Shown: positions 7,844 to 63,369, counted from the first letter of the stretch. The stretch is 64,000 nucleotides of DNA from Berkelbacteria bacterium GW2011_GWE1_39_12 (GCA_001029735.1 CP011213.1:784298-848297); one strand, 5' to 3'. Notes: generated by a model not told the origin, from the letters alone. Made by a program: numbers and translations.

Positions 7844-8770
7844 CTATTGTTTAATACAAGTATTGTATTTATCGACTTGAGTATTGTATGTATCACTTTC
7901 GGTTTGTATTTCTTTTGACAAACTGTCGGCTTGTGCTTGGAGGTCTTTTGCTTTTGCAGTGTCAGCGTCGGCTGTTTCACGAAGCGTTGTACCTTCATCC
8001 CAATATGGTTGTGCTTGAGTTTTGTCTTCTGTTTGAGTATATATTTCATTGCCTTGTTTTATCTTATCGTTTGCTTGGGCATTCATATTTGACGCTTCGG
8101 CGTAAAGAGCGTTTATTTGACTAGCCAAACTTTCATATATATTTTTTTTGTCATTGATATCTTGAAGGATGTTTGAATTGGGGCTCTTGCAATTTGGCAG
8201 GGGCTTACCGAATTCTTGAACTGCAAGCCAGGTCTTACCTCTATTCTCAAAGGTATCTAAACCGGTATAAATACCGATTTCCGTATACTCATTATTTAAT
8301 ATATTTGCCCTATGCCCAGGACTCGCCATCCAGGCATCCACCAAATCTTTTTCATCTTTAAAATCGCCCAAGGCCAAATTTTCGCCAGTGGTTTTGTAAT
8401 TGTAGCCGGTAGCGCTAACCAAATCGGAAGGGGAAACACCGGTAGGGGAAACATGCTCAAAATATTGATTGGTAAACATGTCATCGGTTTTTTTCTGAGC
8501 GGCAGTTACTAAAACAGTATTTGTTTTTAAGGCTAGTAAATTTTCGTCGGCGCGATATTTATTGGTCCAATCTAATACTTTGATGGGATCAAGTGTCTTA
8601 GCTTTTTCTGTGGTTTTTGGGCCAAAAAGTTGGCCTGGGAGACCAGTTGTTATTTTAGATGTACTTGTCTTAGAAAAATATTTTTTGTAAACAAAGTAAC
8701 TAGCCGTGCAAAACCCGCCTAAAATAATAACAATTAAGATAGTTAATAATATCTTTTTATTCAATTCCAT
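7844..8770 (-). CDS. CAP/SCP (YkwD-like) domain protein with an N-terminal TM anchor and a C-terminal coiled-coil, Q/K/D-rich extension
   Basis: N-terminal hydrophobic helix. The middle region has CAP-family signatures (HSQDM-like FTNQYFEHVSP, GENLALG, SPGHRANIL). The C-terminal ~120 aa is low-complexity and coiled-coil-like. Confidence 0.6.
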   Translation of the reverse strand: MELNKKILLTILIVIILGGFCTASYFVYKKYFSKTSTSKITTGLPGQLFGPKTTEKAKTLDPIKVLDWTNKYRADENLLALKTNTVLVTAAQKKTDDMFTNQYFEHVSPTGVSPSDLVSATGYNYKTTGENLALGDFKDEKDLVDAWMASPGHRANILNNEYTEIGIYTGLDTFENRGKTWLAVQEFGKPLPNCKSPNSNILQDINDKKNIYESLASQINALYAEASNMNAQANDKIKQGNEIYTQTEDKTQAQPYWDEGTTLRETADADTAKAKDLQAQADSLSKEIQTESDTYNTQVDKYNTCIKQ

Positions 8771-13763: not shown

Positions 13764-14288
13764 ATGAGAAAGCTTTGTTTGGTGCTACTGGTTATGTTCC
13801 TTGGCTTGATCATTATTGAGAAAGTTTGCACCGCTGAAGAGACAAATCTTCAGATTGAGAAGCGTTATGTTGAGTTGATTAACCAGAAGAGGAAACTTTA
13901 TGGACTTAAGAGTCTTGAAGTGGATCCGCTTCTAACTACCGTCGCACGGGATCATAGCTCAGATATGCGCGATAAACGCTACTTTGCGCATTGTTCGCCA
14001 GACGGAGCGACTCCTCTTGATCGCTATCTTCACAGGCTCCCATACGTTCCTGCTTACGCTCTTTATGGCGAAAACCTATTTTGGTGCTCATCGGCAAAGG
14101 ATTCTACTCCTGAGAACGGAGTCCAAGCATTCATGCTAAGTCCTTCTCACAGAGACAATGTTCTGTGTGAAGGATACGAAAGTATCGGAGTCGGAGTAAC
14201 TACAGATAAATCAGGACAAATTTGGGTCAGTGTCGAACTGGCCATTATCGATCCTAAACCTTCTATGGCCATTGTGGCCAAGAAGTAA
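13764..14288 (+). CDS. secreted CAP/SCP domain protein (YkwD family)
   Basis: Signal peptide, and CAP signatures HSSDMRDKRYFAHCSPDG, GENLFW and SPSHRDNVL. Confidence 0.65.
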   Translation: MRKLCLVLLVMFLGLIIIEKVCTAEETNLQIEKRYVELINQKRKLYGLKSLEVDPLLTTVARDHSSDMRDKRYFAHCSPDGATPLDRYLHRLPYVPAYALYGENLFWCSSAKDSTPENGVQAFMLSPSHRDNVLCEGYESIGVGVTTDKSGQIWVSVELAIIDPKPSMAIVAKK

Positions 14289-14764: not shown

Positions 14765-15430
14765 TAAAGACTGCGAGTTGCATTAGCGCTCGCAGTTTTT
14801 AAAAAGCCAGGAAACCCCGTATGAAAGCGGGCGTCGTCTGGTTTTTTTAGCCCGCTGCAATGCGGGGATGAATGGCTTCCACTTTTACCAGATCCCGTCA
14901 GGGATATGGTAAAATTATCTCATGAGAATTAGAAATTTATGCCACTCCTGCTATCAACATCAATATCGCATTGTTTGGGGAACCAAGTGTCGAAGAAAAT
15001 ATCTCAAAGAATATGTCAAAATTGAGTTAATCAAAAACCTCAAAGAAACCATCAAAAAATATCCCACACTGGAAATTATCGAAATTAATACCAACGAAGA
15101 CCATCTACATCTTCAAATCGAGATACCGCCAGATCTCTCGGTGGCTGCTGTCGTTAGAATATTAAAATCAAAGTCTAGCCTTGCACTCAAGAAAAAGTTT
15201 AAATTTATCCGTGAGATATATCTCGACAGCAGCATTTGGAGTGTGGGATATTTTTCTTCGACAATTGGACTCAACGAGAAACAAATCCGAAAATACATTA
15301 AATGGCAAGGAAAAGAAGACCTCCCGAAGCAGTTAGAACTCTAATTCTCTTGAGCTCCCCAAAGAAACCCCGGCTGAAGCGAGCTTGCGAGCGGAGTCCG
15401 GGGAGTCTCATTCGTATAACTAAAAATTAG
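14765..15430 (+). mobile_element. IS200/IS605-family insertion sequence (TnpA-only, IS200-like) with subterminal hairpins
   Basis: Y1 HUH transposase ORF is flanked by structured ends. The left end has hairpin ACTGCGAG...CTCGCAGT and CCCCG/AGCGGGC...GCCCGCT/CGGGG. The right end has a CCCCGG...CCGGGG hairpin. Confidence 0.55.
14922..15344 (+). CDS. tnpA: IS200/IS605 family transposase TnpA (Y1 HUH)
   Basis: HUH motif HLHLQIEIPP and catalytic Tyr region SVGYFSSTIG. Length is ~140 aa and the N-terminal YRIVWGTKCRRK resembles the TnpA consensus. Confidence 0.8.
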   Translation: MRIRNLCHSCYQHQYRIVWGTKCRRKYLKEYVKIELIKNLKETIKKYPTLEIIEINTNEDHLHLQIEIPPDLSVAAVVRILKSKSSLALKKKFKFIREIYLDSSIWSVGYFSSTIGLNEKQIRKYIKWQGKEDLPKQLEL

Positions 15431-15630: not shown

Positions 15631-18600
15631 GTGTCAACACAAAATCGTCTTCAATTTTCTAAGCCAAAGTTTACTGTGCCACTGCCTAATTTAATCGAAG
15701 TTCAAACCCAGAGCTATGATTGGTTCTTCAAGGAAGGGATTCGAGAACTCCTAGACGAAATTTCTCCGGTAGATGACTTTACCGGAAAAGTTTTGACGTT
15801 GGAATTTTTGGATTACTCACTTGACGCGCCAACCTACGATGAGCAGACAGCTAAGACTAAAAATCTTACCTTCGAAGCTCCTCTCAAATGCAATGTCCGT
15901 TTGACTAACAAAATCTCCGGTAAAACCAAAGATTCTTCAGTGTTTCTTGGTGTTTTTCCGTTGATGACCGATCGCGGTACCTTTATCGTGAACGGGATTG
16001 AAAGAGTCGTCGTTTCCCAGATTGTTCGAAGTTACGGCGTCCTTTTTGTATCAGAAGAAGTTGCCGGAAGAAAACTGTTCGGTTGCAAGATTATTCCTTC
16101 GAGAGGCGCTTGGTTGGAATTCGAAACCTCAAACCGCGACATCATTTCAGTCAAAGTTGATAGAAAACGCAAAATTCTGTTTACTACTTTCTTGCGCGCT
16201 TTAGGTTTGACCGATGATCAAATCATCCATGCTTTTGAAGGCGTCAACGACAATGCAGATCATGATTACGTTAAAGCGACTCTAGCTAAAGACACGGCCA
16301 AGACATTCGACGAGGCCGTTGTTGATGTATATAAAAGAATTCGTCCGGGTGATTTGGCAACTGCCGAAACTGCCCGCAGTTTCTTGGAAGCAATGTTCTT
16401 TAATCCAAAGCGCTATGATTTAGGTCGCGTTGGACGTTATAAAATGAATCAAAGACTTAATATTAAAGCTTCTGAAGACTTGAAGAATCGTATTTTACGA
16501 GTCGACGATGTTGTTGAAGCCATTAAAGAAATTATTCGCTTAAACAACGATCCGATGGCCGAACAAGATGATATTGACCATTTGCGCAACCGCCGTGTTC
16601 GCGCTGTGGGTGAATTAGTTCAAGCCAAGGTTCGCGTCGGTTTGCTTCGTATGGAAAGAATTATTAAAGACAGAATGTCGGTTTTGGACCCAGATACTGT
16701 TACTCCGGCTCAATTAATCAACGCTCGTCCAATTGCCGCTGTTTTGCAAGAATTCTTTGCTTCATCACAGATGTCTCAGTTTATGAACCAAACCAACCCG
16801 CTTGCCGAGTTGGAACATAAGCGTTGTTTGTCAGCCACTGGTCCAGGTGGACTTTCTCGTGAACGCGCTGGATTCGAAGTTCGAGACGTTCATCGTAGTC
16901 ACTATGGCCGTGTCTGTCCGATTGAAACTCCTGAAGGTCCAAACATCGGTTTGGTTGGTTATATGGCCAGTTATGCTCGTATCAATGAATATGGTTTTAT
17001 TGAATCACCATATTTAGTGGTTGAACATGTAAAAGGTCAGAAACCGAAAATTACCAACAAGGTTGTTTATCTGGATGCCGACGAAGAAGATCGTGTTATT
17101 GTTGCTCCAGCTTCGACCGATGTTGACAAAGACGGTTACATTACCGCCACCAAAACTGTTGTTCGGGAATTTGGTGAGCCGGTTATCGACTTAGCTAGTA
17201 AGATTGAATATATTGATGTTTCGCCAAAACAAATTGTATCTATTTCGACTGCCTTGATTCCGTTCGTCGAACATAATGACGCTGTTCGTGCTTCCATGGG
17301 TTCTAATATGGAACGACAAGCCGTGCCTTTGGTTCGCCCAACCTCACCGGTAGTTGGAACGGGTATGGAAGCTGATGCTGCCAGAGACTCTGGTCAGTGT
17401 TTGTTTGCCAAAAACGACGGTGTAGTAACAGAAGCTTCTGGTTCAGAAATTGTTGTTGGCGTTGACCGTTACCGATTAGAAAAATTTATTCGTTCTAACC
17501 AGGCAACCTGTATTAATCAAAGACCGGTTGTTCGGGTTGGCGATAAAGTTAAAAAAGGCCAAATCTTAGCTGATTCTTCTGCAACTGAAGAAGGTGAATT
17601 AGCACTTGGTCAAAACGTCTTAGTTGCCTTTATGCCTTTCAAGGGTGGCAACTTCGAAGACGCTATCATCCTTTCGGAAAAATTAGTTAGAAATGATAAC
17701 TTAACCTCAATTCACATTGAAAAATACTCGACTGAGGTCCGTGACACCAAATTGGGTCCGGAAGTTTTGACTCGCGATATTCCAAACGTGGGTGAAGGTG
17801 CTTTGGCCAACCTTGACGAGCAAGGAATTGTTCGAATTGGTGCTGAAGTTTCTGCCGGCGATATCTTAGTTGGTAAAATTACGCCAAAGGGTGAAACCGA
17901 ACTTTCAGCTGAAGAAAAACTGCTTCGGGCAATCTTCGGTGAAAAAGCTAAAGATGTTAAAGACACTTCCCTTCGACTTCCTCATGGAGAATATGGAAAA
18001 GTTGTTAATGTTGAAATCTTCTCCAAAGAAGCCGGTGATGAATTGCCAGCCGGTGTTTATCAGATGGTTGAAGTCGCAATTGCACAACTTAGAAAAGTCC
18101 AAGTTGGTGATAAATTAGCCGGACGACATGGTAACAAAGGTGTTATTTCCATGGTTTTGCCAGAAGCGGAAATGCCTTACATGCCAGACGGTACACCAGT
18201 TGATATTATCTTAAACCCATTAGGTGTTATTTCCCGTATGAACCTTGGTCAGCTGTTGGAAACTCACTTGGGTTGGGCTGCTAATAAATTAGGCTACAAG
18301 ATTGCCGTTCCGGTTTTTGAAAGCATGTCCTTTGAAGATATTCAGGCCGAATTAAAGAAAGCGGGTTTACCAGAAGACGGTAAGGTCCAATTACATGATG
18401 GACGTACCGGCGAACCTTTCGCTGAAAAAACAACTGTTGGTATTAAATATATGATGAAGCTTTGCCATTTGGTTGATGATAAGATGCACGCTCGATCGAC
18501 TGGACCATACTCTATGGTTACTCAACAGCCGCTGGGTGGTAAATCTCAATTCGGTGGACAAAGATTTGGAGAAATGGAAGTCTGGGCTCTGGAAGGTTAT

Positions 18601-18960
18601 GGAGCCGCTCATTCACTGCAAGAAATGTTAACGATTAAATCGGATGACGTTGTAGGCCGAAGCAAAGCTTATGAAGCCATTATCAAAGGCGAACAAATTC
18701 AGAAACCGTCGATTCCAGCTTCGTTCTTTGTCTTAGTCAAAGAACTTCAGTCGCTTGGCTTGAATGTTGAAATGCTTTCAGCCGCCGATTTAGCCAAGGC
18801 CGCAAAGAAAATTAGCCGCCCGGCAGTGGGCGAATCTGAAAACGAAAAAGAAGATAATGATATTAATAATGCAGAAGAATTAGACGCCGAGGTAACCGAA
18901 TTAAAAGAAGAAGAACCACCGATGGTCGAACCATCGATTGATGAGGGAGAAGATAAATAA
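15631..18960 (+). CDS. rpoB: DNA-directed RNA polymerase subunit beta
   Basis: GTG start with a GGGAG RBS. Conserved RpoB blocks throughout, plus a C-terminal acidic tail. Confidence 0.97.
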
Positions 18961-37214: not shown

Positions 37215-37522
37215 TGATATTAGATAGAAAAATAAGAACAATTAACCGCGTTCGCGCGAAAGTCTCCGGTACAGCCGAAAGACCAAGATTAGCGGTCTTT
37301 AGATCTTTAACCGGCATTTCTGGCCAATTGATTGACGACCAAAAAGGTGTCACTCTTATTTCAGTTGCAGGTAAAGATGCCAGTGAAGCAGGTAAAACAA
37401 TGGCCAAAAAAGCAGTCGAAATGAAAATTCAAGAAGCTGTTTTTGATCGCCGATCTTATCGCTACCATGGTCGTGTTAAAGCCTTTGCTGAAGGCGCCCG
37501 AGATGGAGGATTAAAGATATGA
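37214..37522 (+). CDS. rplR: 50S ribosomal protein L18
   Basis: [10 protein letters not shown]... Confidence 0.92.
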
Positions 37523-38088
37523 ACCCATCACAAGATATAAAACAACCGGTTCAACCGGCTGCAAATCCAAAGAGAAACGAACGCGAATTCAGCGTTGGAC
37601 GACGTGGCGAAGGCCGCGAAAGGCCAAAGAGCGAATTCGAAGAGCATGTTTTGCAGGTTGACCGCGTTTCCCGAACAGTTAAGGGTGGAAAACGTGTTCG
37701 ATTCCGTGCTTTAGTTATTATCGGTAACCGTAATGGTAAAATTGCCATGGGTGTCGGTAAAGCCGCTGAAGTTCAAGTCGCCGTTCAGAAAGCCGTTACT
37801 ATCGCTAAAAAGAATATTTTAGTAATTCCGATCGTAAATGAAACCATTCCTTATCCGATTGATATTCATTCTGGCGCCGCTCACATTATTTTGAAGCCGG
37901 CCAAACCAGGTACATCTGTTATTGCTGGTGGCACCATTCGTGTCATTTGTAACCTAGCTGGTATTCGTAACTTAGTCGCCAAGATTTTAGGGACAGCCAA
38001 TAAGATCAATAATGCGCAAACTACTATGTTGGCATTATCACAAATGGCCAAGAGACATGCAGAGGAGAATCCAAATGGAGTTAAATAA
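37519..38088 (+). CDS. rpsE: 30S ribosomal protein S5 (with a basic N-terminal extension)
   Basis: Motifs [21 protein letters not shown] and GGTIRVICN. Confidence 0.95.
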
Positions 38089-38605
38089 ACTTATTTCAAT
38101 TAAGACGACCAAAAAAGCAAAGCGTTTAGGACGCGGGCTTTCTTCAGGAAAAGGTGAAACTTCTGGTCGTGGTACCAAGGGTCAGAAATCACGCTCAGGC
38201 CATAACATTCCTCGATCATTCGAAGGTGGACAAACTCCGTTAATCCAACGTTTAGCCAAAGCTCGTGGTTTTAATTCTATTCATGCCAAGCCAGAAATCG
38301 TTCATATTGTTGATATTGAAAAAAACTTCAACGACGGCGACACAGTCAATTTTAAATCTTTATTAGAGAAGAAATTAGTTCATTCAGTTAAAGATGGTGT
38401 CAAAGTAGTCGGACCGGGTAAATTAACCAAGTCTTTGCGGTTCCTGGAAGTTAAACTAACCAAGAGTTTGTTTGAAGCAGCTTCCAACAATAAGCCAGCT
38501 GCTAAACCAGCCAAGGCTGTTGAAGCGGAAGTCAAAGAAGCACCTGTTAAGAAAGTTACAGAGAAGAAACCAGTCGCCAAAAAGTCTGCAAAAAAGGCAG
38601 AGTAA
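38075..38605 (+). CDS. rplO: 50S ribosomal protein L15
   Basis: Start at [14 protein letters not shown]...GRGLSSGKGETSGRGTKGQK. It immediately follows rpsE with no rpmD (L30) between, and has a K/A-rich C-terminal tail. Confidence 0.93.
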   Translation: MELNKLISIKTTKKAKRLGRGLSSGKGETSGRGTKGQKSRSGHNIPRSFEGGQTPLIQRLAKARGFNSIHAKPEIVHIVDIEKNFNDGDTVNFKSLLEKKLVHSVKDGVKVVGPGKLTKSLRFLEVKLTKSLFEAASNNKPAAKPAKAVEAEVKEAPVKKVTEKKPVAKKSAKKAE

Positions 38606-53227: not shown

Positions 53228-53454
53228 CTTTTATATAATAGACGTGAATAGTGTTGACAATTATTGATGAGTCTGATATAATTTTTTTATCAAATGCTTA
53301 GGCACTAGAAATTCCGCCTTCTTGCAGAAGGCTGTTTCTTTTTTTGTTGCTAAGTAAGACCCTTGAAAATCTAGTTGATGTTTTTCCTCCAAAGGAGGAT
53401 GACATAGTGGTCGCCAAGGCCAGCGAAAAAAATACAGAAAAACAGGAGAAACCG

Positions 53455-54087
53455 TTGAAATTAAAAGTAATTCTCGTTCTTGCAATGATGCTCTGCGTGA
53501 GCATCGCCTTCGCTTCAGGCGGGTCAGTTACCGGTGACAGTATCGGCACGACAGTAACGTCGGTTGTCCCGACCTACATCGACTGCGTCGACGAGATGCA
53601 GGCGTTCGCGATGGGCACTCAGCACTTTACAAGCGCTTGGGGTCCCGAACGACTTGAAGGTCAGGCATCGTTTAGCGGAGCTTTGGCTTACGCGAACTGT
53701 CCAACAGTTGTCACAGTAACCGGAAACAATCCGGCCGGCGACAATATCCCGAGGCTTGCTCGTGCTGAAGTCGGTGTAAGAGCTGACGGCTTTGACCGAA
53801 TTCCCACAGTTTATGGGATTTCTGTCCTTGCCAATGGCGACAACTATCCGATTACAGACTGGCTCGACGGTTCTTCCCAGGTTCCATTTGTGGGAACAAT
53901 TGCGGAAACCCCGCACAACGGATACGTGGGCTATTCGGTTTTTATTGAAGCCAATGGAACGACAACGATCGACCCGGGGTGTTCAGTGAAAAACACCTAC
54001 ATCGATCCCAACAAGTCAAACGGCGACTCGGCTGACGCCGGCGTCTACGAGGCCAGCCTGGTCTTTACGTTGACACCCGCGCTCTAA
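53455..54087 (+). CDS. Sec-secreted beta-rich protein, putative cargo or fibre subunit of the secretin module (GC-rich ~52%)
   Basis: TTG start lies 5 nt after an AGGAGA RBS. Signal peptide MKLKVILVLAMMLCVSIAFA is followed by a Thr/Gly/Val-rich, strand-like sequence with no TM. Confidence 0.5.
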   Translation: MKLKVILVLAMMLCVSIAFASGGSVTGDSIGTTVTSVVPTYIDCVDEMQAFAMGTQHFTSAWGPERLEGQASFSGALAYANCPTVVTVTGNNPAGDNIPRLARAEVGVRADGFDRIPTVYGISVLANGDNYPITDWLDGSSQVPFVGTIAETPHNGYVGYSVFIEANGTTTIDPGCSVKNTYIDPNKSNGDSADAGVYEASLVFTLTPAL

Positions 54088-54176
54088 AGCTAGAGTGCAA
54101 AACAGGAACACAGTCTTGGCGACTGCGATCAGGGCACCCTTTCGGGGGTGCCCTAGATTTTTATTTGGAGGTAAAA

Positions 54177-55346
54177 ATGAGAGTTCCACTGTTGTTGGTT
54201 CTTTTCTTATTGAGCGCAACAGGATCTTGGGCTGTTGGAATTTATCCGGCAAAAGTTGATGTTGAAGCCCGCGCTGGCAACCAAGTAAAGTTGGTTTTTC
54301 ACATAGTGAACAAATCAGACGATACAAAGGATGCTACGCTTACACCAACCAATTTGTCGGCAGATTCAAATTTCGTTTTGGTTTTCGAACCATCGCGAAT
54401 GGGAACGCCAGCATCTTGGTTTTGGCCACAGGCTGAAGCGTTTAAGTTGCTGCCGAAGTCTGATACCGAACATGTTTTTCGAGTTAAAGTGCCGTCAGGT
54501 ACAAAACCCGGAGAATATTTTGTCGGTTTGCTTCTTGACCCTAATGAAAGCAGAGCGCTTGTCGGAAAGAAATATAAGTTAAATTTGAAGACTCGCGTAG
54601 CGGCAATCATTAAGGTTGTTGTCCCGGGCGTCGGACAATTACCGAAATCAGCCACTCTAGGGGAGTCCACAATTGTCATTGAAAAGAAGAGCCCGATCAA
54701 GTTTGGGGTTCTCTTCCAAAGCACCTGTGTATCAAGTCTTTTAGCTCGGGGGCAATGCCGCGTTATAGGTAAAAATGGAAGAGTCTTTGACTCATTTATC
54801 CTACAAGCAGCCGGTCAGAGCACAAAGGGTTCCGCGTTTGTGTTTCCTAAAGGATCGCGTCGATTTGGCGGAAAATTGCAAAGATGTTTACCTTTGGGGA
54901 GCTATACTGTGGAATTCACTTTTGACTATGGCAACGGTTGGCGTAGAGCCATGACCAAAAAGGATTTTGAAGTTACACAGGAAGTCTCTTCCGAACAAGG
55001 AAAACTCCTTATACTTGGAGTCGACAAGGAATTAATCGAAGAAGTCATTCCCAGAGGTGGGTTTCGGGCGTTTAAGACTACTGTGACGAATATCGGTTTC
55101 GAACCGACTGAAATTACAGTTTCAAAGACATTGATTGCAGAGGTATCGCCGGAAAAGGCGATTTTAGCACCTGGCGGAAAAAAAGATTTCCGAATCATTG
55201 TCAAAATGCCAAGGGATGGCGAGACTCAACTTGTTGAACAATCTGGCAAGATCAGTTTTAAACCCCAGAGTGGGGAACCGATATCTGTCGATGTGAGAAT
55301 TAAGCTCCCGGCAGAGAAATCAAGTGGAAGGAAGGAAACGGAATGA
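54177..55346 (+). CDS. periplasmic two-domain Ig-like/PapD-like protein (putative chaperone or assembly factor)
   Basis: GGAGGT RBS and signal peptide RVPLLLVLFLLSATGSWA. The N-terminal domain GIYPAKVDVEARAGNQVKLVFHIVN fits the PapD-like/MSP beta-sandwich pattern. A second beta-rich domain follows. It overlaps the secretin start by 4 nt. Confidence 0.45.
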   Translation: MRVPLLLVLFLLSATGSWAVGIYPAKVDVEARAGNQVKLVFHIVNKSDDTKDATLTPTNLSADSNFVLVFEPSRMGTPASWFWPQAEAFKLLPKSDTEHVFRVKVPSGTKPGEYFVGLLLDPNESRALVGKKYKLNLKTRVAAIIKVVVPGVGQLPKSATLGESTIVIEKKSPIKFGVLFQSTCVSSLLARGQCRVIGKNGRVFDSFILQAAGQSTKGSAFVFPKGSRRFGGKLQRCLPLGSYTVEFTFDYGNGWRRAMTKKDFEVTQEVSSEQGKLLILGVDKELIEEVIPRGGFRAFKTTVTNIGFEPTEITVSKTLIAEVSPEKAILAPGGKKDFRIIVKMPRDGETQLVEQSGKISFKPQSGEPISVDVRIKLPAEKSSGRKETE

Positions 55347-56587
55347 AAAGGTTGATATTGTGTAGTATTGCACTGTTATGTTTGTTTTTCGGTTCTTCGG
55401 TCGTCAATGCGGACCCAGCCACCAAAATTACCAATGTCTTTCAGGATACAGATATCCGCCAAGCCTTGGTCACGATAGCAGTCCAAGCTGGTGAAAATGT
55501 TGTCCCTGACTCATCGGTCGGCAACATGACTGTCACACTTGATTTGAAAGATGCGCCGTTTGAGGTTGTTTTGCAGATGATCTGCGACTCAGGCGGTTAT
55601 TCGTTCATCAAAGACGAGCATTGTTATCTTGTCGGCCAGGCCGTGCCAACTAACCCGAATTTTGACAGATTCTGCACCTCGGAAGCAGTTAAGCTGAAAA
55701 ACAGTGAAGCTTGTGAAATGGTTAAGGTTTTCAATCAATTTTACGCGCAGTATGTTAAGGCCGGCGGAACAAGGGAAAACGTTATAGTAATCTCTGCTCC
55801 ACAACGCATCAGCCAAGCTATTAAGAAGATAATTCAAGAAATCGATCAGCCAAAGAGACAGATCGAGATCGAGGTGATGGCAGTTGAAATCCAGAAGGTC
55901 AAGGGAAGAGATTTTATGCTTGATTGGACGGAAGGAAGGCCGGGCGTCAGTGGAGGAATTGAGACTCTTTCATTTGCGAACTTTGTGTTTGGTTATACAA
56001 ACACATTGTCCAAGAATGTCCTAATCGGGCTCAAAAGCGCCCTTCAAAATGGAGTTGCTAGAGTTCGTGCGAATCCACGGATAACGACAATGGACGGATA
56101 CGAAGCTTTATTTTCCTCTGGACAAGAAGATTACTTTGACACTTCCAGTCAGAATCCGAATGGATGGCAGACTGGTAAGCTCGAAAAGATCGAGTCTGGT
56201 GTCAAATTGAAAATACTGCCACGTCTAGCAGAAAATGGAGAAATCAATCTTTGTATAACGCCGGATGTGTCAGACGTCATTGGAAAAACCGAACAGGGTT
56301 TACCAAGACTTAATGTTCGGACAATGACAACGACGCTTCGGGTTAAAGACGGAGAAACGATTGTTATGGGAGGTATGCTGAGTGAGATAAGCAGATCCTC
56401 TAAAAAGAAATTGCCGATTCTAGGAGACCTTCCTCTGATCGGTTTCGCTTTCAGAAGCAACTCGACGTCCGCGATTGTGACCGATATGGCGATCCTGGTG
56501 ACGCCACGAATAGTCAACGATCTTACAACGCGAACATCTGTTGAAGCCAACTCTGATCTTCTTGAAGCCGTTGGCGAAAGACGATAA
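55343..56587 (+). CDS. secretin (GspD/PilQ/CpaC family) with one N-domain and a C-terminal secretin domain
   Basis: Signal peptide. An N0-like domain carries the STN-like motif. The Secretin_N block reads VISAPQRISQAIKKIIQEIDQPKRQIEIEVMAVEI. The C-terminal secretin signature reads LRVKDGETIVMGGM...LPILGDLPLIGFAFRS...AILVTPRIV. Confidence 0.8.
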   Translation: MKRLILCSIALLCLFFGSSVVNADPATKITNVFQDTDIRQALVTIAVQAGENVVPDSSVGNMTVTLDLKDAPFEVVLQMICDSGGYSFIKDEHCYLVGQAVPTNPNFDRFCTSEAVKLKNSEACEMVKVFNQFYAQYVKAGGTRENVIVISAPQRISQAIKKIIQEIDQPKRQIEIEVMAVEIQKVKGRDFMLDWTEGRPGVSGGIETLSFANFVFGYTNTLSKNVLIGLKSALQNGVARVRANPRITTMDGYEALFSSGQEDYFDTSSQNPNGWQTGKLEKIESGVKLKILPRLAENGEINLCITPDVSDVIGKTEQGLPRLNVRTMTTTLRVKDGETIVMGGMLSEISRSSKKKLPILGDLPLIGFAFRSNSTSAIVTDMAILVTPRIVNDLTTRTSVEANSDLLEAVGERR

Positions 56588-56606
56588 AATAATATACATT
56601 TATACG

Positions 56607-56633
56607 GGAGTAGTCACATGACTGCTCCTTTTT
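56607..56633 (+). terminator. intrinsic terminator after the secretin gene (GGAGtAGTC-acat-GACTGCTCC + T5)
   Basis: 9-bp stem with one mismatch, followed by a U-run. Confidence 0.55.
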
Positions 56634-56747
56634 AATTACAATTAAAAACGCCGAGCGGTAAACTATCCGAATTGTCGAAAGAATTATAAATTTTAATAGT
56701 TGAAAAATATATTTATCGGCTATATATTAGATATATAAGGAGAATAT

Positions 56748-56924
56748 ATGAAAATACAGGACAATGGGCCTGCAGGTGCAGTTTATGGCATGGGTTTCGT
56801 TGGCGCATTGGTTTATTTCTTAACCAATGCCGGAACTTTTTGGATTGGCGTTTTGGGCGTTCTAAAAGCCATTGTTTGGCCAGCCATCTTAGTTTACGAA
56901 GCCCTAAAGTTTTTAATTAAATAA
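56748..56924 (+). CDS. small hydrophobic protein (58 aa, 2 TM), not in the ORF track
   Basis: Strong RBS TAAGGAGAA 6 nt upstream. Translation is MKIQDNGPAGAVYGMGFVGALVYFLTNAGTFWIGVLGVLKAIVWPAILVYEALKFLIK. Confidence 0.45.
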   Translation: MKIQDNGPAGAVYGMGFVGALVYFLTNAGTFWIGVLGVLKAIVWPAILVYEALKFLIK

Positions 56925-56971: not shown

Positions 56972-57130
56972 ATTTAAATATCAAGAAGCGGTGAGAGATT
57001 TGGCTCGTTGACCCGCTACCAACCGTTCGACTAGTTGTCTAAAGGCGCTCACGGTGGTAAATCCAACCCGAAAGGGAAAGATACGGCAAGTGCAAAACTA
57101 GCTTTTTCTTTCCAATCGGAAAGTTTTTTT
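56972..57130 (+). promoter_or_regulatory. SAM-I (S-box) riboswitch with an intrinsic-terminator expression platform, leader of metK
   Basis: AUCAAGAAGCGGUGAGAGAUUUGGCUCGUUGACCCGCUACCAACC matches the S-box core (AUCAAGAG.GGYGGAGGGA.UGGCCCGAUGAA.CCCGGCAACC). It continues GGUGGUAAAUCC...GAAAGGGAAAGAUACGG and ends in the terminator CUUUCC-AAUC-GGAAAG+U7 at 57106-57130. Confidence 0.7.
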
Positions 57131-59593: not shown

Positions 59594-60868
59594 ATGAGAA
59601 TAATTGAAACATTTCAAGAAATCTTTACGATGAAAGATTTGCGTAATCGTATTTTGTATGCGGTTGGGCTGTTGTTGGCTGCAAGAATTTTAGCGCATGT
59701 ACCATTACCGGGTGTTGATCTTGATGCCTTACAAAGCTTTTTTGCAAGAAACCAAATTTTCGGTTTATTCAATATGTTTTCCGGCGGCGCGATGGAAAAT
59801 TTTTCCGTAATATTGATGGGTGTCGGGCCATATATTACCGCAACGATTATATTTCAGTTGCTTACCATGATAATTCCAGCGATGGATGAACTTAATAAGG
59901 AAGGCGAAAGTGGTCGTGCAAAAATCAACTACTGGACTCGAATTGCCACCGTGCCTTTAGCGCTTGTTCAATCGTTTAGTATGATCCGGATTTTACAAAG
60001 CCAAAGTATTTTAGGCTCCTTAGAACCTTTACAATGGGCAACCATTCTTGTTTCGGTTACTGCTGGTACTATTTTATTAATGTGGCTGGGTGAACTTATA
60101 ACGGAAAACGGCATTGGAAACGGCGTTTCCCTTATCATTGCTTTAGGTATTATCTCCGCCATTCCAGGCCAAGTGCGAAATACCTTACAATTAGTTGATT
60201 CTGGTATGATTGTCGGTTTAATTATTTATATTGCCATTTCAATTGCCGTTGTTGTGTTAATTGTGCTGGCTAACGAGGGTACGCGGCAAATTCCAGTTTC
60301 CTATGCGCGGCGAATACGAGGGCTAAAATCATATGGCGGCGTTGATTCGTTTATTCCTATTAGAGTCAACTCAGCCGGCGTTATTCCAATCATTTTTGCC
60401 ATGAGCATTTTACTTGTTCCAGGTGTGGTGGCTAATTTACTACAAAATGCAAAATCCGAATGGTTAGCCAGTTCTGCTGCACATATGGCAACTTTTTTCC
60501 AGAATAATCTTTACCAGGGAATCATCTACTTTATTCTTGTAGTAGCCTTTACCTATTTCTACACAGGCATTGTATTAAAACCAACCGATATGGCCGAGAA
60601 TTTGCAAAAGCAAGGCGGTTTCATTCCAGGCATCAGACCAGGCACAGAAACGTCTAATTATTTGAGTAAGGTCGTGCTATATATTACTCTTTCAAGCGCA
60701 ATCTTTCTTGGCGCAATTGCTGTTTTACCATATATCGTCCAAGCTATCACCAATATTAATACACTTGTTCTAGGTGGAACCGGTATCTTGATTATGGTTT
60801 CGGTTATAATTGAAACGATGAGACAAATTCAGGCTCAGTTAGCAATGAGATCGTACGATAAATATTAA
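59594..60868 (+). CDS. secY: preprotein translocase subunit SecY (displaced ~21 kb from rplO)
   Basis: 10-TM SecY with conserved blocks (GVGPYITATIIFQLL, plug and TM7 regions). It has its own promoter, TTGACT-16-TAAAAT. Confidence 0.95.
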   Translation: MRIIETFQEIFTMKDLRNRILYAVGLLLAARILAHVPLPGVDLDALQSFFARNQIFGLFNMFSGGAMENFSVILMGVGPYITATIIFQLLTMIIPAMDELNKEGESGRAKINYWTRIATVPLALVQSFSMIRILQSQSILGSLEPLQWATILVSVTAGTILLMWLGELITENGIGNGVSLIIALGIISAIPGQVRNTLQLVDSGMIVGLIIYIAISIAVVVLIVLANEGTRQIPVSYARRIRGLKSYGGVDSFIPIRVNSAGVIPIIFAMSILLVPGVVANLLQNAKSEWLASSAAHMATFFQNNLYQGIIYFILVVAFTYFYTGIVLKPTDMAENLQKQGGFIPGIRPGTETSNYLSKVVLYITLSSAIFLGAIAVLPYIVQAITNINTLVLGGTGILIMVSVIIETMRQIQAQLAMRSYDKY

Positions 60869-60977
60869 ACCGTTTACATATTCACCAGCATGTTCCGCGG
60901 AAATTTACTTCTTAAATTATCGAGACTATGCGTCAGATTCAAGCACAATTAGTAATGAGATCATACGATAAATATTA
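60815..60977 (+). repeat. degenerate direct repeat of the secY 3' terminus (~50 nt, ~80% identity) flanking a 59-nt spacer that carries a CCGCGGAAATTT motif
   Basis: CGATGAGACAAATTCAGGCTCAGTTAGCAATGAGATCGTACGATAAATATTAA (end of secY) is matched by CGAGACTATGCGTCAGATTCAAGCACAATTAGTAATGAGATCATACGATAAATATTAG at 60928-60977. Confidence 0.7.
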
Positions 60978-60987
60978 GGCTGTTCAA

Positions 60988-61980
60988 ATGACAAAAAAAA
61001 TTATATTGATTGTCGGAACAATAATCGTTTTGTTTTTTAGTGCTTTTGTTTTGCTTAAAATCCAACAAAACAAAATCAATCAAGCGGAAAATACAAATAA
61101 TTCAAGCCAAAATACCTCTTTAGTCAAAGCGACGGAAAGTACGAAGCTAAATGGCAAAATTTACTATATTTCCTACAAAGAGGGCAGTTTAGAGATCAAC
61201 TCTTATAACACTTCAGACGATAAAATAACTACCGTTTATTCAGATAAAGACGAAGAATATAAAATTGGGAAATTCGGCAATTTTACAAACCTTTCATCGG
61301 AATTTTTGGCTACTATTAAAAATAGTAATAAGGAGAAGCTTGTTTCTTTTAAGTTTAACGATAAAGCGGATATGCACGTTTTAAGAGAAGATTTTTCCAT
61401 TTCAGAATCCTTTGCCGCCGATCCATTGGGTAAAGAGATCTATTATAGTAAAGAGTTTATTACTGATTCTGAAACAAAGCATAATTTATATCAAGAAACT
61501 CGTGATGGAAAAAACCAAAGGTTGCTTTATCAGGCCAATGCTCCGATTTTAGATCTATCAATTTCGATTGATGGCCAAAAGGCGTTTTTTACCCAAGACG
61601 ATAACAGAATAATAGGCTTAGATTTAAATACTTTTGAAGATGAACAGATTTATAAAACAGGCGACAAAATTTTTGATCTTTCTGTTTTATCAAACGGCAA
61701 TTTAATTTTTACCGAAGCAAACGAAAAAAATATTAACAGTTCAATTGTTTATTTAATTAATTTAAAAACCGGCGAGCTAAAAAAAGATTTGTCTTTGAGG
61801 GAGAAGATGTTATCGTCCGCGATTATCTCTCCGGATATGATCGCCACAGGCGTTGTTCAAAAGAACTTTGAGGACAATTTTAATGACATGCAAACAGGTG
61901 AATTAAGTACAATAAGGATTGGTAGTGATAAAATAAATACTATTGGCTCCGGTATTCATATTATTTGCTGGAAGCCATAG
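60988..61980 (+). CDS. membrane-anchored beta-propeller-like (TolB/PD40-like repeat) protein
   Basis: N-terminal TM. Repeated ~40-aa units with D-x-S/T and hydrophobic strands (DLSISIDGQKAFFT, DLSVLSNGNLIFTE). Inserted between secY and adk. Confidence 0.4.
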   Translation: MTKKIILIVGTIIVLFFSAFVLLKIQQNKINQAENTNNSSQNTSLVKATESTKLNGKIYYISYKEGSLEINSYNTSDDKITTVYSDKDEEYKIGKFGNFTNLSSEFLATIKNSNKEKLVSFKFNDKADMHVLREDFSISESFAADPLGKEIYYSKEFITDSETKHNLYQETRDGKNQRLLYQANAPILDLSISIDGQKAFFTQDDNRIIGLDLNTFEDEQIYKTGDKIFDLSVLSNGNLIFTEANEKNINSSIVYLINLKTGELKKDLSLREKMLSSAIISPDMIATGVVQKNFEDNFNDMQTGELSTIRIGSDKINTIGSGIHIICWKP

Positions 61981-61992
61981 CAAAGGAGTGGA

Positions 61993-62682
61993 ATGAGCAA
62001 AAGCGTTAAAACATTAATTGCTATTTTAATCTTTTTTGCAGCTATTTTTGCTGCAGGTAACGGTTACTTTTATGCTAAAACTGTTTCACTAGAAAACACG
62101 ATGAATAACAAGGATGACTCAGCTATAACAAAAACGAAAACTACAGATACTGTTTCGGCATCCATAACTACCACTACTCCTGTCAAAACCACTGACACAA
62201 CTACTGTTGCAACTTCTAGTACTGACAGTCGCCCATCGAGTCCATCGGATACAGTCGTCGTTGGTCAGGGTGAAACTTTGTTTGCCATCGGTCAAAAAGC
62301 TGGAGTTAGTTGGACACAGATTGCCGATGCCAATGGTATAGACGCAGATAAGATTAAGGTTGATCAAACTCTTATTATCCCTAAAAATAATCAAATCGGT
62401 TTTACTGTAAATAAAGATATGGCCGCAAGTTTACAGAAAGATGTTGATGCTGGCAAATATTTATTTAGACTTACAGCGGTAGACACAGCTAAAGCAGATT
62501 CTCCATCTGCTTACGGAATTACCTCTACTGATACTTTTGCCCAAGCATCAATCGATGAAACCGCGGGTTCGGCAACAGTTACTGCTAAAAAGGGTGACAA
62601 GATATATTTGATAACGTTAATTCAACCGTCAACAAAGGGTGCAAAGGGAATTTGGGCAATTGAATCGATTAAATCAAATTAG
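61993..62682 (+). CDS. LysM domain protein with an N-terminal TM and a Thr-rich linker
   Basis: LysM motif VVVGQGETLFAIGQKAGVSWTQIADANGI...DQTLIIP. Confidence 0.55.
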   Translation: MSKSVKTLIAILIFFAAIFAAGNGYFYAKTVSLENTMNNKDDSAITKTKTTDTVSASITTTTPVKTTDTTTVATSSTDSRPSSPSDTVVVGQGETLFAIGQKAGVSWTQIADANGIDADKIKVDQTLIIPKNNQIGFTVNKDMAASLQKDVDAGKYLFRLTAVDTAKADSPSAYGITSTDTFAQASIDETAGSATVTAKKGDKIYLITLIQPSTKGAKGIWAIESIKSN

Positions 62683-62721
62683 CGATTTATGAATCGAAAG
62701 TAGTTAAACAGAAAAGGAAAA

Positions 62722-63369
62722 ATGCAAAGTTTCATTTTTTTAGGGCCACCAGCTTCCGGTAAAGGAACGCAGGCCAAAGATTTAGCCGAAAAGTTAGGTT
62801 TAATCTATTTCGGAACGGGTGATTTCATGAGGGCTGAAGCAAAAAAACAAAGCCATTTCGGTCAAATCTTTCAACGTGTTTGGGATGAGGGTAAAGGCAA
62901 TTTAGTAGACGATGATATAGTATTAGAATTCGTTAAGGCTAAAATAGAAGAAATTGGTCAAGAAAAAGGTTTTGTTTTTGATGGTTTCCCAAGAACCATT
63001 AAACAAGCGGAGTTTCTTAATCAAGAGCTCAAGCATAATTTAACCGTTTTCAATATTGAGGTTTCAGAAGATTCTATTGTTTCCAGATCAGGCACTAGAA
63101 AAGTTTGCGAAAATTGCGGAAAAATATTCTTTAAGGCGCCGGTAGACAAGCGAAACTGCGAAGTTTGTGGGGGAGGATTAATTCATCGTCAGGAAGACAC
63201 TCCGGGGGTTGTAAAAAAGCGCTTAGAGGTTTATAATCTTCAAACAAAGCCATTAATTGATCACTATAAAAGTAATAATGCATTAGTAGAAATTGATGGT
63301 GAACCAAATATAGAAGAAGTCGCATTGGAAATTGAGGAAAAGGTCAATGAAAGAAGAAGTAACAATTAA
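62722..63369 (+). CDS. adk: adenylate kinase (with a zinc-binding lid, CxxC...CxxC)
   Basis: P-loop GPPASGKGTQA and lid CENCG...CEVCGG. Confidence 0.93.
   Translation: MQSFIFLGPPASGKGTQAKDLAEKLGLIYFGTGDFMRAEAKKQSHFGQIFQRVWDEGKGNLVDDDIVLEFVKAKIEEIGQEKGFVFDGFPRTIKQAEFLNQELKHNLTVFNIEVSEDSIVSRSGTRKVCENCGKIFFKAPVDKRNCEVCGGGLIHRQEDTPGVVKKRLEVYNLQTKPLIDHYKSNNALVEIDGEPNIEEVALEIEEKVNERRSNN

Follow-up and report, generated by a model that had tools for sequence, protein, structure and literature searches.

The plus-strand operon at positions 53254-56629 of the 64,000-nucleotide stretch of DNA analysed here (the window) encodes three proteins, g1, g2 and g3, and probably constitutes a self-contained, horizontally acquired export module for a surface protein or fibre that works without an ATPase. 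The three products, a putative exported subunit or cargo (g1), a putative chaperone or adaptor (g2) and a minimal secretin (g3), are identical in sequence to AKM82726-AKM82728 from Berkelbacteria bacterium GW2011_GWE1_39_12, which has a closed genome of one 915,059-bp contig. The original prediction had raised the possibility of a minimal export or fibre system that depends on a secretin, and this remains the best reading of the locus. Its tie between the module and CPR was dropped, since the window holds one member of a recurrent module whose other members lie mostly in diderm bacteria, with a clearly diderm context for several.

Operon architecture and gene products

The operon runs through a promoter, g1, a hairpin, g2, g3 and a terminator (Table 1), and was compared throughout with an orthologous cassette, L001. 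Upstream of the L001 cassette the -35 box is kept in the same position, and the promoter and leader (53240-53460) align with the L001 stretch at a mean column identity of 78%, compared with only ~70% at the protein level for the coding genes. The leader had no match in an Rfam search, and is not coding, because its indels relative to L001 are not multiples of three. The start of g1 is most likely TTG 53455, as predicted, because the start codon and its RBS spacing are kept in the L001 orthologue and the upstream frame is not. The GC-rich hairpin and T-run lie in the 89-nt gap between g1 and g2, with a hairpin and T-run of other sequence at the same place in L001 and another in L011, and the element is probably an attenuator giving a high ratio of g1 to g2 and g3. 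Translational coupling, earlier proposed for all three genes, was retained for g2 and g3, which overlap by 4 nt, and discarded for g1 and g2, given their spacing and the hairpin between them. The end of the locus, formerly placed at 56924, was moved back to the terminator, since the longer interval includes a separate 58-aa membrane ORF with its own promoter-like site, which is absent beside the orthologous L001 cassette.

Table 1. Features of the operon, with positions counted from the first letter of the window
Feature	Position	Strand	Description
Sigma-70-type promoter	53254-53282	+	TTGACA, 17 nt, TATAAT, extended -10 TG; 12/12 consensus positions
5' leader, ~170 nt	53283-53454	+	Conserved; ends in g1 RBS GGAGA, 5 nt before TTG
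g1, 210 aa	53455-54087	+	Sec signal, cleavage between AFA and SGG; C-terminal end DAGVYEASLVFTLTPAL
Intrinsic-terminator-like hairpin	54131-54154	+	10-bp stem, 7 GC pairs, then ATTTTTAT
g2, 389 aa	54177-55346	+	Sec signal, soluble, pI 9.6, start ATG 54177
g3, 414 aa	55343-56587	+	Signal peptide, cleavage between VNA and DP; N0 ~27-95, Secretin_N-type 114-173, core 235-391
Intrinsic terminator, operon end	56606-56629	+	Equivalent hairpin and T-run after the L001 secretin gene

Mature g1 (19.7 kDa, pI 4.1) is all-beta, with a high content of Gly, Thr, Val and Ala and no transmembrane segment, in agreement with its earlier description as a secreted Thr/Gly-rich beta protein with a Sec signal, the length being corrected from 211 to 210 aa. 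A word-indexed search of 5.8 billion proteins returned only 1 other homologue, no Pfam family matched at E ≤ 0.1, PDB sequences gave no significant match, and the predicted structure had a pLDDT of 31. Comparison with small proteins of other modules showed relationship to L013_251 (28.6% over 168 aa, E 6e-13) and L010_167, and the C-terminal motif of g1 is common to small proteins across modules. The g1-type proteins as a group had no match to Pfam, including WxL, SCPU and DUF4402, or to PDB sequences, and the g1 sequence holds no W-x-L tripeptide.

For g2, a start at TTG 54165 was considered and rejected in favour of the ATG. The protein folds into three beta-sandwich domains, the first two WxLIP-like, with remote homology to the tandem Ig-like domains of WxLIP (DUF916 PF06030 and DUF3324 PF11797), and the third PapD/ASH/MSP-like. 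No hydrophobic or transmembrane segment is present in the mature protein (maximum 19-residue Kyte-Doolittle average 1.22), and neither PapD_N nor PapD_C (PF00345/PF02753) matched at E ≤ 0.1. The two-domain, 390-aa PapD/Ig-like protein of the original prediction thus kept its Sec signal and its PapD-like fold while gaining a domain and losing one residue, and by sequence it does not belong to the PapD chaperone family.

The secretin domain predicted in g3 was confirmed by the Pfam Secretin model PF00263 (134.6 bits, cut-off 27.5; E 3.4e-39; residues 235-391). In the HMM searches that had been proposed as a check, this model passed, Secretin_N (25.5 bits, cut-off 28.2) and the N0 model (16.6 bits, cut-off 27) fell short of their thresholds, and no PapD match was obtained. 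The N0 region matches the PilQ N0 structure 4ar0 (E 1e-4), the protein matches PDB secretins at E 1e-28 to 1e-10, and positions orthologous to its N-region are called STN (PF07660) in relatives. The core keeps the gate and lip motifs (GETIVMGG, LPILGDLPLIGFAF, VTPRIV) and is followed by 23 residues, and g3 has neither lipobox, N-terminal linker nor S-domain. Its scores lie below all curated subfamily cut-offs: 134.9 against 284.35 for PilQ (TIGR02515), 132.7 against 351.35 for GspD (TIGR02517), 114 against 238 for SctC, 106 against 250 for MshL, and, over a full-length alignment, 77.3 against 598 and 75.4 against 554 for HofQ (NF007851 and NF010083).

The prediction that g3 lies outside the canonical loci of T4P, Tad, T2SS and chaperone-usher systems was upheld. 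The C-terminal secretin core of g3 is homologous to those of PilQ, GspD, RcpA and SctC, but g3 lacks AMIN and N1-N2 as well as the S-domain, a single N domain following N0, and has no PilMNOP, GspC, TadZ/TadA or SctD/SctJ neighbour of the kind found in T4P, T2SS, Tad and T3SS loci. Phage pIV and the HofQ/ComE secretins are closer in layout (N0, one N domain and core, ~410 aa), but g3 is far under the HofQ cut-offs, has no adjacent phage or competence genes, and has a WxLIP-like protein as its conserved partner. Chaperone-usher systems of the PapD/FimC/CsuC type differ in that g2 has three domains and no PapD_N/PapD_C match, and in that g2 is coupled to a secretin gene in 15/15 modules, not to the gene of an usher (PF00577) beta-barrel.

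A recurrent module across loci

Fifteen non-identical modules were compared (the window, L001, L004, L006, L008, L009, L010, L011, L013, L015, L016, L017, L021, L022 and L023), with GC across loci of 36-62%. A g2 homologue is followed directly by a secretin, often with overlapping genes, wherever downstream DNA exists, and in each module with upstream DNA this pair is preceded by small signal-peptide proteins that have the C-terminal strand DAGxYxAxLTxT. Homology to these small proteins extends to the C-terminal domain of the large proteins in L004 and L008. The module consists of at least one small (sometimes large, multi-domain) Sec-exported beta protein, a soluble multi-Ig g2 and a short N0-N3-secretin. 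No Pfam or NCBIfam model covers it, and a limited literature search found no description.

Among the neighbouring genes, some of which mark their loci as diderm, TamB and BamA adjoin the L013 module, L008 has a TolC-like OEP and an RND adaptor, and T4P genes occur within 10 kb of two modules (L004 and L023) and are absent from the other 13. No ATPase or platform gene was found in 13/15 modules. A single contig, that of L010, is labelled Saccharibacteria, and its binning is unreliable because the contig is only 5 kb. A search of 2.9 million viral contigs gave no g2 homologue and 1 weak secretin match (27% identity over 200 aa).

The L001 cassette is 69% identical to that of the window and has different neighbours, and its promoter, leader, attenuator and terminator are conserved. 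Between the two, dN is 0.22-0.24, dS is saturated and dN/dS is < ~0.08 for all three genes, which are under strong purifying selection in both loci. In neighbour-joining trees of g3 and g2, built without support values, the window and L001 pair nests among other module sequences, and in a tree of the same kind a long branch separates the module secretins from one canonical PilQ. A lipobox and a linker of ~40-50 residues are present in the secretins of L009, L010, L011, L015, L016 and L017 and not in those of the window and L001; the window secretin has lost its lipobox. Horizontal acquisition, as originally suggested, is consistent with the nested position, the different neighbours in L001 and a moderate GC shift.

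The gene grammar is like that of Firmicute WxL clusters (Enterococcus, Lactiplantibacillus, Listeria), which comprise a small WxL, a large WxL and a WxLIP gene, an analogy that may hold for g2 and the grammar of the gene cluster only. In place of the C-terminal transmembrane helix of WxLIP, g2 has its third, PapD/ASH-like domain, and the module always has a secretin gene, which is not known from Firmicute clusters; no LPxTG protein was noted in the module. None of the 15 small module proteins matched the WxL domain (PF13731) at E ≤ 1, and none had a PDB sequence match, though entry 9i25 holds a long WxL chain.

Host genome and chromosomal setting

The CPR host deduced in the original prediction agrees with the named genome: rpsE directly abuts rplO, the L30 gene being missing between the S5 and L15 ORFs, and cdaA and obg are found in the window. 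The operon lies between rplO and secY, and further assemblies of the same locus exist in a 341-kb ENA contig and in Logan contigs, with g1 also on a 786-kb ENA contig. A chimera or misbinned fragment, which the original prediction had allowed for, is excluded because the locus was assembled independently several times, and by its placement in the 915-kb contig.

GC is 53.4% in g1, 44.7% in g2 and 44.9% in g3, compared with 40.6% for the window, and GC3 of the cassette is 40-57%, compared with ~33% in core genes. The predicted GC shift of ~45-52% was therefore kept as a moderate one, but the tetranucleotide distance at 53-56 kb is no outlier (z = 1.6). Rather than the single insertion that had been proposed, the 21-kb interval from rplO to secY is a mosaic, with mixed strands, GC per gene of 30-53% and housekeeping genes, among them a metK under riboswitch control; no tRNA, no flanking repeats and, among Pfam matches of the scanned ORFs, no integrase were found in it. 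Pilin, ATPase and platform genes were likewise not found nearby, as had been stated, there being no prepilin motif in any of the window's six frames and no T2SSE or T2SSF family among the window ORFs scanned with Pfam.

A secretin normally requires an outer membrane. In the 64-kb window and 10-kb flanks, no outer-membrane biogenesis genes (BamA, LptD, Lpx, Lol) were seen. Outer membrane and secretins are reported absent from the CPR, to which this ultra-small bacterium belongs and the cells of which are, in the published view, episymbionts attached to host cells; CPR generally carry T4P genes, and their pili reportedly function with no secretin.

Proposed function and alternative explanations

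In the mechanism that we favour, g1, g2 and g3 would cross the cytoplasmic membrane by Sec, and the basic g2 would bind and stabilise the acidic g1, as WxLIP does with WxL proteins and PapD-like chaperones with pilins, and would deliver it to the N0 ring of the secretin. A secretin multimer may then serve as a gated channel through the outermost layer of the envelope, here that of a CPR cell, with g1 reaching the cell surface to form an adhesin layer or fibre and no dedicated ATPase being used, and the attenuator after g1 would place the subunit in excess over the machinery. A diderm donor would have passed the module to Berkelbacteria, in which the secretin then lost its lipobox and linker and all three genes were kept by purifying selection. 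Genes elsewhere in the genome could supply an ATPase or inner-membrane platform, the L004 and L023 modules being near T4P genes.

It is improbable that g3 is an ordinary PilQ/GspD/HofQ-type secretin serving T4P or competence machinery elsewhere (e.g. in DNA uptake), with g1 and g2 as unrelated neighbours. Its names in NCBI and UniRef, GspD or PilQ, suggest such a role, as do its HofQ-like length and layout (N0, single N domain and secretin, with the NF007851 alignment spanning residues 9-392), but its scores are far under every curated subfamily cut-off. Two related modules lie close to T4P genes, and CPR generally have such genes; the g2-secretin adjacency is nevertheless invariant in all 15 modules, T4P genes being absent from most of them, and L004, with its PilMNO-PilQ genes, holds a separate canonical PilQ only 28% identical to its module secretin. 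The empty pilin-motif and T2SSE/T2SSF scans and the reported secretin-free operation of CPR pili also argue against this role. An outward-acting secretin, which after export by Sec would form a large gated pore in the outer membrane of the diderm cell that the episymbiont attaches to, with g1 and g2 as adhesin or bridge, was judged similarly unlikely. Some secretins (PulD, pIV) enter lipid bilayers without Bam machinery, and the plain signal peptide that the window and L001 secretins have in place of a lipobox and linker would fit a protein leaving its producer. In favour are also the lack of outer-membrane markers in the 64 kb inspected and the description of CPR as host-attached cells without an outer membrane. 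This proposal is purely inferential, however, and the BamA and TamB genes of diderm relatives, adjoining their module, suggest use in cis; to our knowledge, no secretin acts in trans on another cell.

Derivation from the extrusion system of a filamentous phage (inovirus-like) or other mobile element, in which g3 would be a secretin of the pIV type, is highly improbable. The f1 pIV chain in 7ofh is, like g3, 414 aa long, residues 104-392 of g3 aligning to 107-412 (E 2.4e-19), and the cassette is GC-shifted in a variable region, but the ORFs scanned included no gene for a Zot/pI ATPase, a coat protein, replication or an integrase, the viral contigs gave only the one weak secretin match and no g2 homologue, and the locus has neither flanking repeats nor a tRNA, with conserved chromosomal partners in 15 loci. 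The reported absence of secretins from other CPR and the moderate GC shift would fit an artefact of assembly or binning, or a cluster of decaying pseudogenes without function in a CPR cell, a reading that is effectively refuted by the re-assemblies, by the placement between rplO and secY in a 915,059-bp contig and by purifying selection, together with unexceptional tetranucleotides, intact frames and conserved signals.

Beyond export by this one operon, the module might represent a new class of secretin pathway, in which small beta-sandwich subunits pass from a periplasmic WxLIP/PapD-like chaperone to a minimal secretin, neither an ATPase nor an inner-membrane platform taking part, a suggestion that we make tentatively and consider possible rather than likely. 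If true, it would define a chaperone-secretin route, the diderm counterpart of Gram-positive WxL surface complexes, and its retention under selection in a CPR bacterium would imply either an outer envelope layer able to host the secretin or a secretin deployed into the outer membrane of the host.

Operon anatomy and surrounding region

The cassette, comprising g1 (small secreted beta protein, 210 aa), g2 (WxLIP/PapD-like protein) and g3 (secretin, 414 aa), was delineated together with its control elements and neighbouring features (table). The original prediction of a three-gene unit was borne out overall, but translational coupling, also proposed there for g1 and g2, was confined to g2 and g3, whose genes overlap by 4 nt. 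The g2 product is 389 aa rather than 390 aa long, and the predicted extent to 56924 had taken in a 58-aa membrane ORF that is a separate gene, lying 3' of the secretin terminator and 5' of the SAM riboswitch, and missing beside the orthologous cassette of the locus L001. Canonical Sec signal peptides were found in all three cassette products, with no further hydrophobic segments; mature g1 is acidic (pI 4.1) and Gly/Thr/Val/Ala-rich, and mature g2 is basic (pI 9.6).

Features of the secretin operon and of the wider window
Feature	Position	Strand	Remarks
CAP-domain (cysteine-rich secretory protein family) protein	7844-8770	-	
CAP-domain (cysteine-rich secretory protein family) protein	13764-14288	+	
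IS200-like Y1 transposase	14922-15344	+	PF01797, E 3.2e-27
Sigma-70 promoter, perfect	53254-53282	+	TTGACA, 17 nt, TATAAT, TG
g1 leader, ~170 nt	53283-53454	+	in L001 about 6690-6869
g1	53455-54087	+	TTG start, GGAGA ribosome-binding site 5 nt upstream
Hairpin (10-bp, GC-rich), then T-run	54131-54154	+	g1-g2 spacer
g2	54177-55346	+	ATG start, GGAGG before start
g3	55343-56587	+	
Terminator 3' of g3	56606-56629	+	
58-aa ORF	56748-56924	+	two hydrophobic stretches (MKIQDNGPAGAVYGMGFVGALVYFLT...); own promoter-like site at 56700-56728
SAM-I riboswitch	56975-57087	+	RF00162, full-length match, 49.4 bits vs gathering score 44.4
metK, short, 319 aa	57148-58107		directly downstream of the SAM-I riboswitch

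The promoter and leader stretch showed 78% mean column identity between the window and L001, with the proteins only ~70% identical. The leader contains a block, GATGTTTTTCCTC..AGGAGGAT.ACATAG.GGTCGCCAAG, plus a CCTCC/GGAGG hairpin, and matched nothing in Rfam; judged on two sequences, it may be a regulatory RNA. The intergenic hairpin was found in modules with long spacers (window, L001, L011 and probably L006 and L008) and was missing after the subunit gene in modules with 12-27 nt between genes, and thus is not universal. The operon is autonomous, with a probable attenuator separating g1, the predicted highly expressed subunit gene, from the g2-g3 pair.

The cassette had been placed in a 21-kb insertion. 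Synteny is indeed broken between rplO (ending at 38605) and secY (starting at 59594), but the intervening stretch is put together as a mosaic and not as a single island, using both strands, with per-gene GC of 30-53%, and holding housekeeping genes, including metK behind its riboswitch, as well as UvdE, SPFH, His_Phos and Pif1-family genes. As marks of an integration site, tRNAs were looked for in this stretch and direct or inverted repeats around the cassette, and none turned up; nor did the ORFs scanned include an integrase. It is the 3.4-kb cassette alone that behaves as a transferable unit. The ribosomal super-operon (37519-38605 and 59594-63369) is interrupted twice, by the ~21 kb of mixed genes that splits rplO from secY, and between secY and adk by two extra genes, a 330-aa ORF without a Pfam match and one for a 229-aa LysM protein. 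Elsewhere in the window, the IS200-like transposase lies ~290 nt upstream of a probable rpoB (15631-18960), so identified from its size and its place ahead of rpoC, and the CAP-domain protein encoded on the reverse strand shares 44% identity across the CAP domain with a CAP protein flanking the L001 cassette.

The three cassette proteins

The secretin assignment of g3 made from sequence alone was confirmed with the Pfam Secretin model (E 3.4e-39). Matches to the Secretin_N and N0 models were slightly below cut-offs, and the N0 region matched the PilQ N0 structure 4ar0. Scores for PilQ, GspD, SctC, MshL and HofQ were roughly equal and all far under the curated cut-offs, and g3 is therefore a secretin of no named subfamily. 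It is a minimal secretin, in which the signal peptide is followed directly by N0, one N domain, the core with its motifs intact, and then only 23 residues. Secretins of the low-GC loci L009, L010, L011, L015, L016 and L017 are predicted lipoproteins, in which an xGC lipobox and a low-complexity linker of ~40-50 residues precede N0. Both are missing from the secretins of the window and L001, and the Berkelbacteria copy seems to have been streamlined by losing its lipid anchor.

For g2, no match was found in Pfam or NCBIfam. Exhaustive phmmer searching gave 151 cluster representatives at E <= 1e-3, 41 of them below 1e-10 and most 350-570 aa long; a word-indexed search with a 31-sequence g2 profile gave at least five proteins, and a genome-contig scan with a seven-sequence alignment one locus only. 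An AF2 model from the 31-sequence alignment (pLDDT 89.9, pTM 0.78) consists of three beta-sandwich domains. Since this model matched WxLIP in Foldseek (target-normalised TM-scores 0.56-0.61), and the family profile retrieved WxLIP by sequence with E 4.9e-8, the second-domain PxGxYxAE motif being part of the match, g2 was assigned as a remote WxLIP homologue. It differs from WxLIP in having a third PapD-like domain in place of the membrane helix. The earlier description of g2 as PapD-like thus holds for the fold, which the model predicts to be that of pilus chaperones, and not for the family. WxLIP has been reported to bind and stabilise beta-rich WxL surface proteins, through a contact that an AlphaFold2 model predicts to be insertion of a beta-hairpin strand.

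The g1 protein retrieved itself and one orthologue only in a word-indexed search of 5.8 billion proteins, and its AF2 model from a two-sequence alignment reached a pLDDT of 31. Local comparison aligned it with a 251-aa protein of L013 at 28.6% identity over 168 aa and shows kinship between g1 and the small secreted proteins found in other modules. Three features recur in these proteins: a post-signal strand (V/T)xVxVxxY(I), an 'F/YxxxAN' strand, and a C-terminal DAGxYxAxLTxT strand. Pfam (E <= 1) and PDB profile searches with 15 small subunits gave nothing significant, and membership of SCPU, DUF4402 or WxL, considered on account of the C-terminal motif, found no support.

Related modules, provenance and alternative explanations

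Loci bearing module homologues were collected by walking out from secretin homologues, from g2 homologues, and by collection scans, and every ORF of these loci was scored with HMMs for g2 and for secretin. Fifteen non-identical modules (GC 36-62%) extend beyond g2 on the downstream side, and in each of them g2 is followed directly by a secretin; motif-bearing small proteins lie upstream in every module having upstream DNA. L004 and L008 encode a large multi-domain protein whose C-terminal domain is that of the small one. The L013 module adjoins TamB and BamA, L008 carries a TolC-like OEP and an RND adaptor, and L004 a separate canonical PilMNO-PilQ; these relatives are clearly diderm. The L001 cassette (209, 384 and 412 aa) is 69% identical to that of the window and has different neighbours, with the promoter at the same position, a hairpin in the g1-g2 spacer that agrees in location but not in sequence, and a terminator. 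In neighbour-joining trees, which carry no support values, the Berkelbacteria/L001 pair was nested among other module sequences. Because of this nesting, and a GC3 of 40-57% in the cassette against ~33% in core genes, the Berkelbacteria copy appears to have come from a diderm.

Two metagenomic loci extend the range of arrangements. L023 (5880-12959 and 15533-19374; 37% GC) contains a pair of g2-like genes, for proteins of 273 and 535 aa, and two secretins in tandem, of 435 and 599 aa, then a GAF histidine kinase, followed on the opposite strand by PilC, PilT and PilB. L010 (CAZJJV010000032.1, 5.1 kb), a complete module adjoining a thioredoxin-like membrane protein, comes from a 'Candidatus Saccharibacteria' MAG bin; the contig is too short for the binning to be trusted, and if the binning is right, a second CPR phylum has the module.

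An artefact or pseudogene cluster is the least probable of the alternatives and scarcely credible. The three proteins are identical to AKM82726, AKM82727 and AKM82728 of Berkelbacteria bacterium GW2011_GWE1_39_12 (915,059-bp contig; locus tags UT28_C0001G0949 for g1 and UT28_C0001G0950 for g2), and are annotated a second time as TPA entries HBO60186-HBO60188. The locus and its neighbours were also found on an independent 341-kb ENA contig (groundwater run SRR1658469) and on Logan contigs, with g1 additionally on a 786-kb ENA contig, and the tetranucleotide distance of the 53-56 kb interval from the window mean was z = 1.6; chimerism and misbinning, raised as possible refutations, were excluded. 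The CPR markers noted originally (rpsE adjoining rplO without the L30 gene, and cdaA and obg) were recovered, along with a YbbR-domain gene. Between the window and L001, dN was 0.22-0.24 with dS saturated, and dN/dS was below about 0.08 for all three genes, a pattern that points to a cassette functional in two diverged lineages.

That g3 is an ordinary PilQ or HofQ working with type IV pili encoded elsewhere was judged unlikely: T4P genes occur within 10 kb only at L004 and L023. In the neighbour-joining trees, which lack support values, the module secretins grouped far from the sole canonical PilQ, the outgroup. Origin as an inovirus remnant was considered very improbable; among 2.9 million viral contigs there were no g2 relatives and only one weak secretin match.

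Proposed mechanism and significance

In the favoured reading, once g1, g2 and g3 have been exported via Sec, g1 would be held by g2, g2 would dock onto the secretin N0 ring, and g1 would pass through the secretin to the far side of the outermost layer and build an adhesin layer or a fibre on the surface, driven by folding or assembly rather than ATP. A dedicated ATPase gene is missing from every module. The ring could sit in an S-layer-like outer layer or in the host cell's outer membrane; deployment of the secretin outward into a host membrane, as a separate explanation, was given only a slim chance.

To our knowledge, all characterised secretins operate alongside an inner-membrane machine powered by ATP (T2SS, T3SS, T4P, Tad or filamentous-phage extrusion). 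If small secreted subunits and a chaperone-like Ig protein are the only partners of the module secretin, the known uses of the channel would come to include one that is independent of ATP. The module would also tie the WxL/WxLIP surface system of Gram-positive bacteria, itself poorly understood, to an export route of diderms. The parts belong to known families; what appears new is the partner set of the secretin system, with an ATPase seemingly unneeded, and a limited literature search (secretin in Berkelbacteria; 'orphan secretin'; secretin with WxL) returned no prior description of gene or module.

The module is unexpected in a CPR genome. An outer membrane has been reported missing from CPR cells, and comparative studies found PilQ and GspD missing from CPR and took this to argue for a monoderm envelope. 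To that reported absence the Berkelbacteria genome, a single contig of 915 kb, provides a definite counterexample in the form of a secretin operon under selection, which renders the question of the CPR envelope testable.
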